Below, piece by piece: positions 6,371 to 56,410 of a stretch of DNA of 64,000 nucleotides. The position numbers and the translations under genes were made by a program. The stretch spans positions 1 to 64,000 of IMG/VR virus record IMGVR_UViG_3300037560_000207; one strand, 5' to 3'. Within the stretch, counting starts at the first letter, position 1. The number at the start of each line of letters is the position of its first letter. A model generated the notes under the pieces. The model saw nothing but the letters and a program-made list of their open reading frames with translations, had not been told where the DNA came from and ran no database searches. Source of the DNA: a virus.

Positions 6371-6390
6371 TATAAAATAATTCCTTTTAA

Positions 6391-6736
6391 TGGAGACGCG
6401 GGGAATTGAACCCCGGTCCAGCGATAAAATTCAATAATACTTCTACGTGCATAGTTGATTATTTAAATCTCGGAGCCACAAACGCCAACCAACAGGCTTT
6501 TATTTTTCCACATCAGACTATTATTTCATATTGATCCGGTCGAATATCAAATCAACACTAGCCCACTGCCATCGTCAATCAGAATAGTAGGCGTCTTCCA
6601 ATTAACGGACTGCTTAAGCAGCCATTTTTAAACGAGCTTCGCCGTTTAAGATTATCGCCAGTTTTTTAACGAGGCCAACTGACAACCTCGGCACGCAACA
6701 TCACTTTCACTTACCCTGTCGATTCCTATCGTCCCC
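6391..6736 (-). ncRNA. ssrA: tmRNA, tag reading frame GEARLKMAA*
   Basis: GGGGACG/CGTCTCC-A acceptor with G3:U70, GGAATCGAC 5' motif, T-arm CGGGG-TTCAATT-CCCCG, internal frame TAAAC-GGC GAA GCT CGT TTA AAA ATG GCT GCT TAA. Confidence 0.92.
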
Positions 6737-49876: not shown

Positions 49877-50207
49877 GGCCCTCCGATTTTTTTTGGCTTT
49901 TTTGTGGGGTAATAACGCGATTGATTTAGGGGTTGAAAAAGGGGTGTACCCCAAAAGGTGGGTGTTAAGGAGAGAAAAAGTGTACATGAAAAGTTGTAGG
50001 TAATGTGAAAAATGAGCCGGGTATGCCTAACCCCCCGCACGGTTATTGGACCCAGATGAGTTATCGGACCGTTTATAAAACGGGCCGCGCCCCTGTTTTG
50101 TCCTATAAACAGATACCCACGCCTACAAAGTTATCGGACTATTCTTGCTCGACTAGCAAGGAAAGTTATCGGACATAAAAAAGATTTTATTTTACTATGT
50201 TATAGGC

Positions 50208-50236
50208 TTGCATTCTCGGGGGCGGTATGCTACAAT
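50208..50236 (+). promoter_or_regulatory. sigma70-type promoter for plus-strand small genes
   Basis: TTGCAT-N17-TACAAT with TG extension. Confidence 0.7.
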
Positions 50237-50254
50237 ACAGGTAGAAAGAGAGGC

Positions 50255-50431
50255 ATGGAAACGATGAATTACCAGACTCTAATCACAAATGCAATGGGTT
50301 GGCTAGCCGATGATCCTATCAGAATTGCATGGATTATCGGAATCGTTGTGGTGCTCGGAGCGGTAAACGGTATTTATCGGTCGCTCGGACATTGTAGGAA
50401 TATCGGACATAGTGGGCGACGTATCCTATAA
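50255..50431 (+). CDS. small membrane protein
   Basis: Manual ORF METMNYQTL...IAWIIGIVVVLGAV...; GAGG RBS. Confidence 0.55.
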   Translation: METMNYQTLITNAMGWLADDPIRIAWIIGIVVVLGAVNGIYRSLGHCRNIGHSGRRIL

Positions 50432-50525
50432 CGATAGGGGTAATAACGATGTTTTGGTATCGGATTATCTGGTGTGCGGTGGTAATCACAGTTATCGGTA
50501 TGTGGTAGGTTATCGGAGGGACAAA

Positions 50526-50612
50526 ATGACCATCATTATCGGATGTGTGGTTTTAGTGATTATAGGAGCCCTTGCGATATGGGGCGTGTTTAACGACATT
50601 ACCGGACTATAA
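50526..50612 (+). CDS. 28-aa membrane peptide
   Basis: GGAGGG RBS, MTIIIGCVVLVIIGALAIWGV. Confidence 0.45.
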   Translation: MTIIIGCVVLVIIGALAIWGVFNDITGL

Positions 50613-50626
50613 CAGGAGCGGTAACT

Positions 50627-50887
50627 ATGTTCGGAAACGCTACAATCGACATACCAGGAAACGGAGTTATCGGACCAACACACATGGAAGGATTATCGGA
50701 CCAACTTGCGTTGTGTATGGGACGTATCGCAGCGATGACGTTACCGGATGCCTTCATTACAGTTATACTTGAAGGCGGAATATTGGTAGTTATCGGATGT
50801 GATAAGTTCAACGGCGAGATTGTTATCAGACGTTGTAGTGGTTATCGGGAATATGCCAATAACATAGTAGGAGGGCCTATAATATAA
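50627..50887 (+). CDS. hypothetical protein
   Basis: AGGAG RBS. Confidence 0.6.
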   Translation: MFGNATIDIPGNGVIGPTHMEGLSDQLALCMGRIAAMTLPDAFITVILEGGILVVIGCDKFNGEIVIRRCSGYREYANNIVGGPII

Positions 50888-51234
50888 TGGGACCACTAGA
50901 AGTTATAGGACCGTATGCTGGTACTGTAATAACTACCAGAAAGACGGACGTTCCCGCGACCAATAACCCACCCAATGGTACTTCTATACTTATCGGACTA
51001 CTCATGCTCCCGTTGGGGTTATTAGCCCTTGTATTTATAGGACTATACGTGTGGGCATACCGATTTCCTTTGTGTCTTATTGGACTAATCGTTATCGGAC
51101 TATGGGCGTGTGCCCATTTTGGGTCCAATAAACCACTAATAAGGTGGCATAGAAAGAACAGATTATCAGACGAGCAACGTGCTAGAATCGAGCGCAGATT
51201 ATCAGACATCGAACGACAGCCGGGGCTGCAATAG
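50887..51234 (+). CDS. two-TM membrane protein
   Basis: AGGAGG RBS; hydrophobic hairpin. Confidence 0.6.
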   Translation: MGPLEVIGPYAGTVITTRKTDVPATNNPPNGTSILIGLLMLPLGLLALVFIGLYVWAYRFPLCLIGLIVIGLWACAHFGSNKPLIRWHRKNRLSDEQRARIERRLSDIERQPGLQ

Positions 51235-51290
51235 TCTGATAATAGTAAAGGCTAGTTTAGTGTGTCGAAGTCATACATAGGGGAATTACG

Positions 51291-51647
51291 ATGAGAAACG
51301 TAGTTATAGGACAGACCGGACGGATTCCATTATCAGACGATGCGATCATGCGTAAACTGTCGCATAGACGAACGGTCCGATATCAGTACGCAAAGGCAAA
51401 GCACGGGTGGATAGCATGGGTTTGCGGACCTTTTCATTCCCGGACCTACGGAGCGTGCGCGTTTGGGACCGATAAAAGAAGGAGTAGAGTCTCGCTTCAA
51501 AGGCGGTTGGCTAATAATTATCGGTATCTAGGTCTTATGCTACACTCGGACGTGGACGATGCAGATAACGTGGGCAACGTGGACGATAGGTTATTGGACG
51601 TGGGCGTGGTCAATAGGGCGATAACTGAAGGCGTTTGTCGCCTGTAG
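51291..51647 (+). CDS. hypothetical protein
   Basis: GGGG RBS; 118 aa. Confidence 0.6.
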   Translation: MRNVVIGQTGRIPLSDDAIMRKLSHRRTVRYQYAKAKHGWIAWVCGPFHSRTYGACAFGTDKRRSRVSLQRRLANNYRYLGLMLHSDVDDADNVGNVDDRLLDVGVVNRAITEGVCRL

Positions 51648-51856
51648 ATTATTGGACACAAAACAGGAGAAAACTTATGGGACTAACGGTGAAAGAATTA
51701 AGAACCGCTTTAAGGGAGTTAGCAGACGATTGCCAAGTTATATTATCGGTCGAGGATGATAATCCACCAGTACCGATAATCCACGAGACGGAGGCAATCG
51801 GCGCAATTGTCGGTCCTGGGGTAATCAAGATTCTCGGAACAATGCACTACCGCTAA
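51635..51856 (+). CDS. hypothetical protein (start probably MGLTVKEL)
   Basis: AGGAG RBS; TVKEL...L...DD.QV pattern common in phage small proteins. Confidence 0.55.
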   Translation: MSPVDYWTQNRRKLMGLTVKELRTALRELADDCQVILSVEDDNPPVPIIHETEAIGAIVGPGVIKILGTMHYR

Positions 51857-51868
51857 TATCTAGGAATC

Positions 51869-51891
51869 GGCCCGATTTTATCGGGCCTTTT
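51869..51891 (+). terminator. Rho-independent terminator
   Basis: GGCCCGAT-TTT-ATCGGGCC-TTTT; stem contains a TTATCGG copy. Confidence 0.7.
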
Positions 51892-52082
51892 CCATGCGCA
51901 TCTCGTAACATTATCGGACCATCACTTTTGCGTCTTGCTTTCATTATCGGACAGGACTGCATTATAGGTCTTGTCTGGAAACTAACTTACCCTGTCTGTA
52001 ATATTGTGGATGTTATTCGACAGTAGTGATAATATCGTTATTTTTATAGGAACAAAAAATGGTTATCGGAGTATAATAAGTT

Positions 52083-52616
52083 ATGGGAACTACCTACGCA
52101 CTACCAGTTATTGGACGAAACTACGAGTTATCGGCTATCGTGGACGTGGAGGATTATCGGACACTTAAGTTATGGGAATATAGGTGGTATAGAGTTATCG
52201 GAACCAGCGGTATCACTTATGCTCAGACCAATATAAACGGTAAAATGATTACCCTCCATCGCTTAATTATGGGAACTACGGATCGGCCAAGGTCCGTATG
52301 TGTAGATCATATTGATAGAAACGGACTTAATTGTTCTCGGACTAATATGCGTATAACCGATAATACAGGCAATCAAAGAAACGCTCGTAAACATTTATCG
52401 GCCAATCCCACAAGTTCCTATAAAGGTGTCCGACATATGGGTCCAAAATATCGGACCAAACCTTGGCGCGCAGAAATTACATTATCGGATAGCCAACCAC
52501 AACACATTGGAACTTATCGGACTCAAGAAGACGCAGCAAAGGCTTATAATAAAGCGGCCATAAAATTATTTGGACCTATGGCACGATTGAATGTTATTAG
52601 ACCCAAATCCACCTAA
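52083..52616 (+). CDS. HNH-AP2 homing endonuclease
   Basis: LHRLIM...VDHIDRNGLNCSRTNMR; AP2 SSYKGV...WRAEI...IGTY.T.EDAAKAYN.AA..LFG..ARLN. Confidence 0.9.
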   Translation: MGTTYALPVIGRNYELSAIVDVEDYRTLKLWEYRWYRVIGTSGITYAQTNINGKMITLHRLIMGTTDRPRSVCVDHIDRNGLNCSRTNMRITDNTGNQRNARKHLSANPTSSYKGVRHMGPKYRTKPWRAEITLSDSQPQHIGTYRTQEDAAKAYNKAAIKLFGPMARLNVIRPKST

Positions 52617-52809
52617 AAAACATATCGGACTGTGTTTTTGTCCAGTAATATCGTTATTCTTACCTAAAAAATACGGTTATTTTCAACCTAGCATAATATA
52701 TCCTATCGGACTTTAGTAAACGGACGTAATTATTATCGGCTAGGACGTTATTTGCCGATAAAAACACGATTGGCGCGCCAAAAACACCTAAAAAAAACCT
52801 ATATAATGT

Positions 52810-52838
52810 TTGACCTATTGTATAACTACCCCTATAGT
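52810..52838 (+). promoter_or_regulatory. sigma70-type promoter upstream of structured region
   Basis: TTGACC-N17-TATAGT. Confidence 0.6.
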
Positions 52839-52869
52839 ATAGTGTAGGATAAGAAACCATAGGGTTATA

Positions 52870-53160
52870 AGACAGTGTGATAACGGGGAAGCGCCCTACC
52901 GGAAGCGGAGTCTCAAATCCGATAGTCTTGGGAACGTCCCACCGAGATTGTGGGTGAGCGTCCGACAGAGTGTTTGCTCGGGGCGCGAGCCCCGGTATAG
53001 GACGTTTCTCCGTTATCATTCCGACGTGACTATCATAGTCACCGATAATAAGTGATCTACGCAATGTAGGTCCGAATAATGATTCCGAGATTCACTACTT
53101 GCTCGTCCTATAATCGGGACGGAGTAGTCTCGGTATGGGACGGGCAATAACTCTTCTTGC
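52870..53160 (+). ncRNA. candidate structured RNA / long 5' leader
   Basis: 15-bp closing stem GATAACGGGGAAGCG/CGTTTCTCCGTTATC, GCGA and GCAA tetraloop hairpins, further nested stems. Confidence 0.55.
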
Positions 53161-53172
53161 AAGGAGAATTGT

Positions 53173-53520
53173 ATGCCGTCTAGTTCCACAATTGCCGAGT
53201 CTACCACAGCTAGTGGTACGGAATTCGGGTCCGCTGAATTCATCGAGAATGCTGTCTCTTATGCGGAACACAGGGCGCTCGTCAACGCCGCGTCCAAGTA
53301 CGATAACTTGGATGATGCACAAGCCGCGCTTTCTACCGTTTGGGCAGCGCTCGTTGAGCAATCCCAACAGGGTGGAGGGTTTACGCCGTCTGTCGAGTTG
53401 GGGTTCGGGTCTGATAATGCCTCGCAGATCGCGTTTGCACTTATCGGACAACGGAGTCGAGTCACCGATACCCGTAAGGCTATGGTAGCCGTCGGTAAGG
53501 CGAATACGCCGAGCACGTAG
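53173..53520 (+). CDS. 115-aa orphan protein embedded in structured region
   Basis: AAGGAG RBS 6 nt upstream; Ala/Ser-rich, helical-looking. Confidence 0.65.
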   Translation: MPSSSTIAESTTASGTEFGSAEFIENAVSYAEHRALVNAASKYDNLDDAQAALSTVWAALVEQSQQGGGFTPSVELGFGSDNASQIAFALIGQRSRVTDTRKAMVAVGKANTPST

Positions 53521-53525
53521 TATCT

Positions 53526-54086
53526 ATCGCACCGCGTCTCTAACGTCCAGTAACTCCGGTGGATGATGCCGTTAGGGACGTGGACCGATGGGTATTCTAA
53601 ATCGCTTAGTGGGTGGCACCCATATTGACGGTCAATGATCGTCTAACATAGGCACGCTGTTTGTGTCAGCGATTCCCATAACCCTTTATCACAGCGGGGA
53701 GTCCGATAAGCATCGGGTATACCCGGACGGGGTTGGTCTAGTCCGATAGTCCGCCGTAGTAGGGTCTGTCGAACGTGCAGGATGTGCGCTTCGGGTCTGA
53801 ACCGGAGAATTACGGTTATCGGTCGAAGCCAATCTTAGAAGCGACAAAACGTAGGATTCGAGAATACGAATCCAGTCTACGCCGATAATATGGGCGAGAT
53901 AAGTAACGGTCTTGTCTGCGCAATTCCCTATATGGCGCGCACGGTTCTGGTTCAGCGCCAGATAGCGCTCTGTCTAGGTATAATTGTGTTGACTATCGAA
54001 CAAGACGTTATGGGAATACGTCCGTGGTTCGGTGTAGGCAAGTTAAATCGTCGTGGGATAGGCATATCCTAATGACGGGTTTTTTT
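53526..54086 (+). ncRNA. candidate large structured RNA ending in terminator-like hairpin
   Basis: 14-bp stem 53532-53545/53570-53583, GGATTCG/CGAATCC, CTTGTCTGC/GTAGGCAAG long-range stem, GGATA-GGCA-TATCC plus U7. Confidence 0.55.
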
Positions 54087-54099
54087 GTCCCTGTCGATA

Positions 54100-54830
54100 A
54101 ACTTTTCTATGCAGATGGTCTAGTTTATTATAGCTGACAATACGCTGGGTCGGATAATAGAAAACGGCGCGGAATACACCTGTCGGGATTGGCATTGAAA
54201 CAGTAAAACGCAAACGGGTAGAATGCGTGTAGCTGTTTCCTTGTAGCCGAACGACACGACGCGGCGGCAGTAGTAAAGCTGGAGTAAACCGACTGTCCGG
54301 TCCAGTGGCGCGCTAGCCCGTCGTTATAAAGTACACAAGAAACAGTCCTATCTGTGATAAGGGTTCGTTTATTCGGATTCCGGTACACTAACTGACAGTA
54401 AAGTAACGGTAGGGCTTTGTACATAAAAAGCAGAGGTAGGGCCTACGGGCCGGGAAGTTAAATCGTATTCTCCATAGAAGAGTCGATAAAGAACATTGTT
54501 CGAGCCGTGTCGATCTTTAATAATTGGAGAATAGATTTAACGGCAAACTTGGTGGGTTAGTTTGTCAACTTTTGGAGTGTTCCCGAGAAGTTTGGATCAC
54601 CATTCGTCAGAGGAACGGGGAGCCTGCCGTACCAGTTTTGGTGGAAATTCTGGTACACTTTTTACGATGACATATCACTACGGACTGCAATCTAGCCAAT
54701 GGGAATAACGTGTTATATATTAGCCAAATCGACGAATGAGGTATAGAGCGCCGTCTGAGGGTTTGGGTTTAACCTGATCGCCTATAATAGGCGGCTCATC
54801 TATACTTTGTCGTCGGGCGTACTTAATAGA
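54100..54830 (+). ncRNA. candidate structured RNA
   Basis: 17-bp stem 54457-54474/54525-54541, GTACCAG/CTGGTAC, GACGA..GGTATAGA/TCTATACT..TCGTC; no credible ORF. Confidence 0.5.
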
Positions 54831-54963
54831 AATCGTGCGCACGGTATCTATTGGGGTATATGGCGCGCCTTGAGGGGTGAAATATATATAGAAGCCACAC
54901 TTGGCGTTGCAGCCTGTAGTGATGTGTCATTTTTTAGGGAAATCTGTAAAAGGAAAAATAAGA

Positions 54964-55134
54964 ATGAAAGAGCGTGAACTTGCATGTTGGATTGTCGGAA
55001 GTATAATGGGTTTCACCGCCCTTATGATAGGGGGGATAGGATACTATACCGCAAAGCTTGCAACCATTAAATATGAGGCGTGGATTCAAATCTCCCACGA
55101 GGTAATGAAAGCAATCACCAGTCTAACAGACTAA
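54964..55134 (+). CDS. small membrane protein
   Basis: AAGGA RBS, single TM. Confidence 0.55.
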   Translation: MKERELACWIVGSIMGFTALMIGGIGYYTAKLATIKYEAWIQISHEVMKAITSLTD

Positions 55135-55201
55135 GAAGAATAGTGATGGAATTCCGATCCACTCTTCTTTGTTGTCATACTATCTCAAAAGGGGCTGCAA
55201 A

Positions 55202-55411
55202 ATGATTCAAAAGGGAAGTACTGCAATCGTAAGAACCAGGAACGCGATCTACTCTCCGTGTCAAATTGTTCTCCTGCATGAGAACAGTGTCGCTGTGGAG
55301 TATCTTGCGGGCATGAAGAAAGACAGCAAGACAGGGAAGATGGTTGAGGATCGTCGAGTCGATACGATTCCTCGCAATCAGATTGTCAGCATGTCTGAAA
55401 GACCTTTTTAA
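55202..55411 (+). CDS. hypothetical protein
   Basis: AGGGG RBS before MIQKG. Confidence 0.6.
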   Translation: MIQKGSTAIVRTRNAIYSPCQIVLLHENSVAVEYLAGMKKDSKTGKMVEDRRVDTIPRNQIVSMSERPF

Positions 55412-55421
55412 GGAGGAAAAA

Positions 55422-55685
55422 ATGATCATTTTTCACGGTGGATGTAGTTGTGGGGTCGTTTGGAGAATAAGTCTTAATGAATATGAAATTGAATCTGGTC
55501 ACCCGGAAAGACCAAATATAATCACGGCTGGTTATTTCAGGTGGTGTCCAATTCTAAAGCAATGGACACTAATTGTATCTCACGATCGGTCGTTTACTTT
55601 TGACTTCACACAAAAAGCGTGGGCGGGTTTGTGGATGGAAAGAGAAAAGATCACGGAACACGCTTCTAACCCTAAGCAACAATAA
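55422..55685 (+). CDS. hypothetical protein
   Basis: AAGGAGG RBS. Confidence 0.65.
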   Translation: MIIFHGGCSCGVVWRISLNEYEIESGHPERPNIITAGYFRWCPILKQWTLIVSHDRSFTFDFTQKAWAGLWMEREKITEHASNPKQQ

Positions 55686-55796
55686 AAATCAAATCTTTGG
55701 GTGGTTGGCTTTTAACTCTATGCGACAAGTAATACTGTGGCAAGCCGTAAAGGATAAGCCTGGAAATCCACTCTAAGCTAATTTCATCCCTTTTAT

Positions 55797-55893
55797 GAAG
55801 GTGGTAGTTTAATTGGTAAAGCAGCCTATATCCTGATATAATCCTATCGGATCAGGGTGTAAGCAATCGCGGGTTCGAGTCCCGTCCACCTTC
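55797..55893 (+). tRNA. tRNA-like element with His-type G-1:C73 acceptor and extended anticodon arm
   Basis: GAAGGTGG/CCACCTTC 8-bp acceptor, D-loop AATTGGTA, T-arm GCGGG-TTCGAGT-CCCGT; anticodon arm ~24 nt too long. Confidence 0.7.
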
Positions 55894-55950
55894 TTCAAGA
55901 ATTCTGGTACATTTTTCTTCATAGGTCGGTATCTCAAAAGGAGAACTATA

Positions 55951-56139
55951 ATGAAACGAATAAATATTAAAGGGACTTGTGGGGTGTGTGGTGAGGAACG
56001 TGATACGTTTGTTTCTGCCAGTAATGTCGATGCTGGCCCGTGGACGTGTGAGAATTGTGCCAAAATCGTAGGTCAATACCTTGCAATGACTGGATACGTT
56101 CTGGTTCTTCCTGTGCCAAATCCCGATACTGTATATTAA
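55951..56139 (+). CDS. zinc-ribbon small protein
   Basis: CGVC...CENC; AGGAG RBS. Confidence 0.65.
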   Translation: MKRINIKGTCGVCGEERDTFVSASNVDAGPWTCENCAKIVGQYLAMTGYVLVLPVPNPDTVY

Positions 56140-56147
56140 TAGTCTAA

Positions 56148-56220
56148 GGGGACATAGCTCAATCGGTAGAGTAATCGACTCATAATCGATCGGTTAAGGG
56201 TTCAAGTCCCTTTGTCCCCA
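56148..56220 (+). tRNA. tRNA-Ile2(CAT), or Met
   Basis: Full cloverleaf; anticodon arm ATCGA-CTCATAA-TCGAT resembles lysidine tRNA-Ile2. Confidence 0.9.
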
Positions 56221-56410
56221 ATATTATAAAGATATTACCCTCCTTTCCTGGTCATGCTGTCAGATTACGATTTGACAGTGTGGCTAAATGCTCTTTGGTT
56301 TGTAAATCAGAGGGTGTCTAGCTGCACTATCTAAATGTAGTGGGGTAGTATGGGGGTTTCACACTACATCTTGTATAAAATAGCCAGACACAAAATAGGA
56401 GAATAACCAC

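Follow-up and report, generated by a model that had tools for sequence, protein, structure and literature searches.

A covarying, uncatalogued leader RNA family between a sigma70-type promoter and an orphan early gene of large uncultured phages

The leader of the lambda N gene, which comprises nutL and, ahead of the N ribosome-binding site, a hairpin sensitive to RNase III, is promoter-proximal, early and 200-300 nt long. Small hairpins with GNRA-like loops stand beside its conserved single-stranded boxes, and a long irregular helix follows that stops shortly upstream of the SD of an early gene of ~110 aa. Helices in this leader, as in the early mRNAs of T7, set mRNA half-life. A second kind of control is exerted by CsrA, which reads a GGA word.

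The phage leader described here resembles the lambda N leader by analogy of layout, with promoter-proximal hairpins, boxes and a long helix preceding a small early gene. It differs in having no evident likeness to boxA or boxB, in an acidic protein whose N-terminus is not arginine-rich, and in two competing folds and five copies of a word that have no counterpart in lambda. Like the orphan riboswitch candidates and the 'Cis-reg' motifs of Rfam, it is a conserved multi-helix element of ~150 nt that always precedes one gene family, with stems that covary, junctions whose nucleotides are conserved, one stem that is optional and variable, and a choice of pairings close to the ribosome-binding site. 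Unlike these, its helices lie in series rather than around a closed junction, Rfam holds no match, and it is limited to uncultured phages. CsrB/RsmZ-type RNAs and CsrA-controlled leaders share with it a short word that is repeated between and on hairpins, with the last copy near the SD. The word here is CCGAUAA / GUCCNAUAA rather than GGA, and the genes for CsrA, Hfq and RNase III, which we looked for in the 181-kb phage genome, are all absent; one Rfam match to CsrC, elsewhere in the homologous contig L009, is at chance level (E 0.2). ROOL and GOLLD are likewise structured RNAs of phage genomes with tRNA genes not far away, whereas the present leader is directly coupled to an ORF, and a search with both models (RF03087, RF01998) gave no match at any threshold.

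Comparison of homologous loci shows a new, uncatalogued family of structured leader RNAs, conserved between a sigma70-type promoter and an orphan early gene. Our main reading, to which we assign a probability of about 0.5, is that the leader may act in cis as a conformational switch controlling this gene. The family adds more than 50 strongly covarying members to the small set of structured RNAs known from phages. A single 9-nt word recurs both in the leader, as its building block, and in a dense polar array across the adjacent early genes. The trigger of the leader, once found, could show how early genes are timed in these phages, and it could decide between a DNA and an RNA reading of the array word.

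A leader RNA between promoter and orphan gene

The window analysed here is the first 64 kb (64,000 nucleotides) of a complete 181,360-bp IMG/VR phage with direct terminal repeats. The leader sits within a 5-6-kb island with a G+C content of 44-46%, against 33-38% elsewhere, and the genes switch to the + strand in this island. An earlier inspection of the letters (the sequence-only reading) had proposed a structured leader or ncRNA at 52845-53165 behind a sigma70 promoter, and a promoter with 10/12 matches is indeed present. The flanking features are as follows.

52810-52838, + strand: sigma70-type promoter, with the -35 element TTGACC at 52810-15, a 17-nt spacer and the -10 element TATAGT at 52833-38
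53173-53520, + strand: orphan gene of 115 aa served by the leader, with an AGGAG ribosome-binding site and the AUG at 53173

Transcription would start at ~52845. The block TTGAC-N5-TGTATAACT-N6-TAtAGTATA was found upstream of the leader in most homologues with upstream sequence, and this conserved promoter suggests that the leader is transcribed.

Homologues were collected from viral and metagenome contigs by means of the downstream ORF and two degenerate DNA patterns. The ORF has 15 homologues of 94-49% identity in a large protein collection, and the contigs of these relatives contain long gene-free gaps both before and after it. When the upstream gaps were aligned, a block stood out that is conserved and shows clear compensating changes. 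A first pattern derived from this block, in which every stem position was written as N, identified 4 viral and 48 metagenome loci; a second, which did not require the first conserved segment, added 3 viral contigs of 113-180 kb. Together, more than 50 distinct homologues were obtained. Part of the conservation of those segments that the first pattern specified is due to ascertainment, but the loci reached through the protein also conserve them, and the loci found with the second pattern nearly do so. Each genome carries one leader, and no second copy was detected in the window or in the rest of the phage genome.

The genomes that carry the leader belong to a clade of large uncultured phages, for which the phage collection contains no cultured relative: positions 52600-53600 had no match among 50,697 phage records (BLASTN, distant mode). 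The core pattern had 0 matches in 185,579 prokaryote genomes and therefore yielded no prophage or host clue. Viral contigs were also searched with an exact 20-nt pattern from the P0 hairpin described below and with an ORF-based locus search, and neither gave a match. We screened the whole window against the 4227 models of Rfam 15, which include riboswitches, ribozymes, group I/II introns, HEARO, ROOL, GOLLD, 6S and CsrB/C. Only tRNAs and a tmRNA passed the gathering threshold; the leader had no match when 51500-54000 was searched at E<=10, nor did the leaders of six homologous loci at E<=1. This agrees with the initial impression that the RNA belongs to no known riboswitch or ribozyme family. 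A full-text literature search with the conserved words retrieved unrelated primer sequences only.

Folding energy was calculated for the 321 nt of 52845-53165. The + strand reaches -131.3 kcal/mol, far below dinucleotide shuffles (-97.7 +/- 5.6; z -6.0; 0/100 as good), and the - strand has a z of -3.4. Across the family, G-U pairs outnumber A-C mismatches by 131 to 8 in P1, P2 and P3, and the + strand folds better than the - strand in 48/48 sequences (mean -63.7 vs -53.1 kcal/mol). The G-U excess and the greater stability of the + strand argue that this strand pairs as a single strand, most simply as RNA. Together with the covariation among homologues, these values support the proposal of a structured + strand RNA. 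Of its two forms, leader or free ncRNA, the former is supported because the core of every homologue ends 10-25 nt before the SD and AUG of a gene that is always of the same family. Protein-coding sequence on either strand was considered and rejected: the overlapping ORFs have no Pfam match, and some homologues have, while others lack, a domain of up to ~140 nt, with compensating changes in the stems between homologues, which counts against coding.

The conserved core and an optional 5' domain

The conserved core consists of hairpins arranged in series and is preceded in part of the family by an additional domain, P0.

53017-53177, + strand: conserved core, made up in this order of P1, CCGAUAAUAAGUG, P2, GUCCGAAUA, the putatively bistable P3 region and P4
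52877-53018, + strand: P0, optional domain with a closing helix 52877-95/53000-18 of 19 bp including G-U pairs and a lineage-specific multibranch insert
52922-31/52942-51 and 52979-94, + strand: inner hairpins of P0 in the MFE fold, lineage-specific
53017-53025, + strand: segment CAUUCCGAC before P1, conserved in alignments A1 and A2
53026-53042, + strand: P1 hairpin, GUGAC/GUCAC with a 7-nt loop; 5/5 pairs change on both sides and 98-99% of cells are paired
53042-53054, + strand: J1/2, conserved single-stranded CCGAUAAUAAGUG, which includes CCGAUAA
53054-53072, + strand: P2 hairpin with a 7-bp stem and the pentaloop GCAAU at 53061-65; 4/7 pairs change on both sides and 98.6% of cells are paired
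53070-53079, + strand: J2/3, GUCCGAAUAA, conserved in the alignment

P1 and P2 covary strongly. In P2, G-U pairs and A-C mismatches stand at 83 vs 1, and the hairpin was recovered independently by RNAalifold on a MAFFT alignment that was blind to structure. The P1 loop is a GNRA tetraloop elsewhere in the family. J1/2 is conserved in those loci fetched by protein only that reach so far upstream, and nearly so in the loci of the pattern that did not require it.

P0 is more variable. Its helix was found in 14 homologues, about half of the family lacking the domain, and where stem tracing worked (10/14) it is 19-25 bp long, differs in stem sequence and includes 2-5 G-U pairs per homologue. The smallest insert, of 3 nt, is that of L022, whose P0 is a plain 23-bp hairpin, and the largest exceed 120 nt. 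Large insertions occur only 5' of the core. In L017 a partial extra P1-P2 module lies upstream of P0 and is followed by the full core (59-175 and 286-449), evidence from sequence that modules can duplicate.

Most elements named in the sequence-only reading were recovered, some in altered form. The multibranch domain is real, although optional, and the stem that closes it has 19 bp in the MFE fold instead of 15. Within it, the hairpin CGGGGC-GCGA-GCCCCG is present at 52979-94, while the postulated CCCAC/GTGGG hairpin gives way in the MFE fold to 52922-31/52942-51, where relative L007 shows 2 compensatory changes. GTGAC/GTCAC pairs at 53026-30/53038-42 as P1. The CTAC-GCAA-TGTAG hairpin corresponds to P2, but its stem has 7 bp and its family-wide loop is the pentaloop GCAAN, not GCAA. 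The long stem of CCGAG..ACTACT with AGTAGT.CTCGG exists at 53085-53133 as one of two competing folds only, and the element does not end at 53165: the functional unit extends to ~53177 and takes in a hairpin around the SD (53162-66) and the ATG (53173).

Competing P3 folds and the translation start

The 3' half of the core can be drawn in two mutually exclusive ways, followed by a hairpin that contains the translation start.

53085-53133, + strand: P3 state 1, long stem with an outer part 53085-89/53129-33 (CCGAG/CUCGG) and a middle part 53094-99/53123-28 (ACUACU/AGUAGU)
53103-08/53117-22, + strand: P3 state 1, inner helix UCGUCC/GGACGG with the loop UAUAAUCG
53102-12 with 53134-44, + strand: P3 state 2, helix b:b' (UAUGGGACGGG); 98% paired, 3 covarying pairs
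53114-20 with 53127-33, + strand: P3 state 2, hairpin d:d' inside b:b', with the hexaloop GGAGUA; 91% paired, 3 covarying pairs
53143-53177, + strand: P4, hairpin around SD and AUG, pairing 53143-50/53169-77 and 53152-57/53162-67, with the SD AGGAG at 53162-66 and the AUG at 53173

Covariation was quantified on alignments that had been fitted to the structural models, which applies to all of the following pair counts. In the alignment made with the long stem (state 1), 92.4% of cells are paired vs 82.0% in shuffles, 17 pairs change on both sides vs 9.0 +/- 1.3, and 48 further pair types occur vs 35.2 +/- 1.7; for all three measures the count of shuffles doing as well was 0/500. Sliding the partners by 1-3 columns lowers pairing to 32-44%. 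Within state 1, which comprises ~17 bp in the window, the inner helix is paired in 100% and the middle part in 84% of cells, while the two modelled outer pairs, which lie in a poorly aligned region, reach 57%; compensatory changes are seen in L054 and L029.

The b strand of state 2 is composed of the 5' strand of state 1 plus its loop. RNAalifold returns state 2 as its consensus for the MAFFT alignment. State 2 pairs 96.6% of cells in the alignment fitted to it, and is the more stable fold in 43/47 sequences, by 5.3 kcal/mol on average. Both states fit nearly all sequences. Covariance-model scores, a rough comparison given that the two models come from different alignments, put state 2 ahead by 10-16 bits in 3 subgroups and state 1 slightly ahead in the subgroup of the window. 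A base N of the P3 loop (GUCC-N-AUA) covaries with its partner N' in b' (C-G 21, G-C 8, U-A 2, U-G 14). In the array of related words upstream of the leader, the majority variant is C in nearly every phage with enough upstream sequence, irrespective of the N in the P3 loop. Since the array stays C whatever N is, a shared motif preference cannot explain the N:N' covariation, which argues that state 2 is a real pairing. As judged from these comparisons the P3 region is bistable, and the support for state 2 across the family is at least equal to that for state 1. Part of this two-state picture could be due to a 9-nt word that is repeated internally in both orientations. A pseudoknot of ACUAC/GUAGU together with b:b' is possible and compatible with the sequences.

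A P4-type hairpin around SD and AUG is predicted in nearly all of 51 homologues, and in 38/51 at least two of the three AUG nucleotides are paired in it. Its 5' partners vary by lineage (AUAAC/GUUAU, GUCA/UGAC, CAAU/AUUG, GGAUAU/AUGUCC), and its stability exceeds that of mononucleotide shuffles by a modest margin (mean z -1.3). In the window, the two outermost pairs of P4 take the last two G of b'. We calculated constrained partition functions for the two P3 states and found no systematic difference in the accessibility of SD and AUG: the mean unpaired fraction was 0.45 vs 0.34 for the SD and 0.47 vs 0.44 for the AUG, and the direction varies among sequences. It is therefore from the position of the leader that we infer translational control.

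According to our main reading, the leader would act in cis on the gene that follows, setting its translation initiation and perhaps its stability. In state 2, the 3' arm b' adjoins P4 and has two G in common with it. The trigger would most likely be a macromolecule that recognises the repeated CCGAUAA / GUCCNAUAA words exposed by the linkers and the P3 loop, either a protein or an RNA with the complementary word UUAUCGGAC, which is abundant in the upstream early transcripts. No candidate RNA-binding protein emerged for this role from the phage genome, in which CsrA, Hfq and RNase III were looked for, and this counts against the reading. Simple autoregulation by the product of the ORF is disfavoured because this product is acidic (pI 4.6 in the window and ~4.6-6.6 in all homologues but one), and it is unlikely to bind RNA. 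The protein matches no Pfam or PHROG family. It is predicted to be helical with low confidence (AlphaFold2 pLDDT 47), a model too poor for a structure search; look-alikes in the Atlas were uninformative, and no metabolic role could be recognised.

We considered whether the core might instead be the aptamer of a metabolite riboswitch, with the exchange between states 1 and 2 as its expression platform. A core of ~150 nt with near-invariant junction nucleotides, the optional variable stem P0, alternative pairings beside the ribosome-binding site and the possible pseudoknot would all suit such an element, as would an RNA that is better conserved than the protein it precedes; a conserved and covarying 5' UTR structure, expected of a riboswitch, is what we found. 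An all-against-all column scan for a long-range closing helix, however, returned only invariant, uninformative candidates besides P1, P2, b:c, b:b' and d:d', so that no closed multi-helix junction emerged, and what is conserved in single strands is one word in five copies, not a unique pocket. For a gene without a recognisable metabolic role no ligand can be proposed either, and we regard a riboswitch as unlikely.

A simpler possibility is that P0 and P3 serve as RNase III-type sites or as protective 5' structures, by analogy with the phage mRNAs mentioned above, and that nothing switches. Helices of 19-25 bp in P0 and of ~17 bp in state 1 would be suitable, and P0 is optional, as an accessory stabiliser should be. 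A role in processing or stability only would leave the near-invariant single-stranded segments unexplained, as well as the two conserved competing pairings and the N:N' covariation, and seems rather improbable to us.

A repeated word and the surrounding early locus

The words CCGAUAA / GUCCNAUAA of the leader, five single-stranded copies of one word carried by the conserved linkers, by the P3 loop and by the stretch preceding P4, are the reverse complement of TTATNGGAC, the word of an upstream array. In the window, TTATCGGAC occurs in 14 exact copies (0.4 expected), 12 of which lie on the + strand in 50061-53449. The array itself spans 50061-52712. Where relatives offer ~1.5 kb or more of upstream sequence, among them L004, L013, L021, L030, L035, L047, L060 and L062, the 3.3 kb upstream of the leader contain 9-34 copies of TTATNGGAC on the + strand vs 0-2 of the complement. 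By this comparison the polar array is a clade-wide feature. The leader region holds at least 10 word-like copies in both orientations within ~330 bp. The stretch 52691-52857, just 5' of the promoter, is conserved in L007, L012, L016/L038 and L045 and carries an inverted word pair, TTATCGGC ... GCCGATAA.

Such a density of words in both orientations, next to a polar array, could point to a DNA-level element, that is, a field of binding sites for a protein that reads the 9-bp word as operator or in packaging or replication, with folding as a by-product. The strongest covariation is seen in P1, P2 and those parts of P0 that lie outside the word, none of which includes a copy of it, so that inverted DNA sites alone do not account for the RNA structure. 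The GNRA-type loops, the fixed position relative to promoter and SD and the excess of G-U over A-C also speak against it; G-T wobble leaves a single-stranded DNA hairpin formally possible. We consider a purely DNA-level role very improbable.

The same words might alternatively act in trans, if the CCGAUAA / GUCCNAUAA copies were seeds of an anti-motif RNA that pairs with the 20-34 UUAUNGGAC words of co-directional early transcripts and silences or senses them. The words are exact reverse complements of the array word, they are displayed in linkers and a hairpin loop between stable helices like the seeds of sRNAs, and the array copies lie on the transcribed strand with almost none in the opposite orientation. 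On the other hand, the word in the P3 loop pairs with b' inside the same molecule, its variant is independent of the majority variant of the array, conservation of J1/2 goes past the word (AUAAGUG), and the array may be read as DNA. A trans-acting role is therefore quite improbable in our estimation. More speculative still in scope, and an outside chance at best, is an RNA system of word and anti-word with the leader as its hub: one small RNA would sense or silence the early transcriptome, and pairing would flip its two folds and thereby time the orphan gene. A weak match to the model (15 bits) at 6430-6481 of L049 (- strand) is a lone hairpin, GGCC-CGAUAAUCU-GGCC, with the word in its loop, which suggests that word-in-loop hairpins occur elsewhere in these phages.

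Downstream of the orphan gene, two non-coding blocks (53648-54073 and ~54247-54458) retain 69-83% nucleotide identity in distant relatives. The leader, too, stays conserved at the nucleotide level in those relatives, in which the coding sequence of the ORF is undetectable by BLASTN. The block 53648-54073 has a rich RNAalifold consensus structure, contains further GUCCGAUA(A/G) words and had no match in an Rfam search; it is probably a second large structured RNA of the same transcription unit, as far as this modelling goes. Judged by its conservation, the leader heads an RNA-rich early locus of ~2 kb.

A simple scan of 52600-56249 found no intrinsic terminator on the + strand. An attenuator based on such a terminator was rejected as well, no terminator-like + strand site being present in 52600-54200, which includes the stretch from promoter to gene. 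Read-through of the long and largely untranslated unit downstream would be expected if the leader modified RNA polymerase for processive antitermination or against Rho, by analogy with the boxB-boxA-boxC of rrn, the lambda nut sites or HK022 put. The unit would then include 1.4 kb of conserved non-coding RNA and tRNA genes, and both the promoter-proximal position and hairpins flanking conserved single-stranded boxes would fit. Elements of this kind do not need the fixed spacing between core and SD/AUG that all homologues keep, and the adjacent acidic protein contains no arginine-rich, N-like peptide. J1/2 CCGAUAAUAAGUG bears no evident sequence likeness to boxA. Of the hallmarks of a lambda-type nut site, the P2 pentaloop is GNRA-like, but neither an evident boxA beside boxB nor an arginine-rich N-type protein was found. 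Antitermination is thus an explanation that we hold to be unlikely, and the cis-acting switch at the translation start is the reading that we prefer.

Upstream of the leader, 52083-52616 encodes an HNH-AP2 homing endonuclease (PHROG 99, E 1.5e-29). The gene is found at the same position in L054, L032 and L030 and is absent from the close relative L007, a pattern that, by comparison of these loci, is as expected for a mobile insertion, and the gene is not linked to the RNA. An intron associated with this gene was dropped as a candidate: intron models gave no match, and the HNH gene is missing in L007.

Further structured RNAs are encoded at a distance from the leader. A tRNA-like match of 96 nt at 55798-55893 (Rfam tRNA, 39.8 bits), which ARAGORN did not call, could represent a tRNA whose anticodon arm carries an insertion. 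The phage also encodes a tmRNA at 6388-6736 (- strand, 158.6 bits), whose tag peptide is GEARLKMAA.
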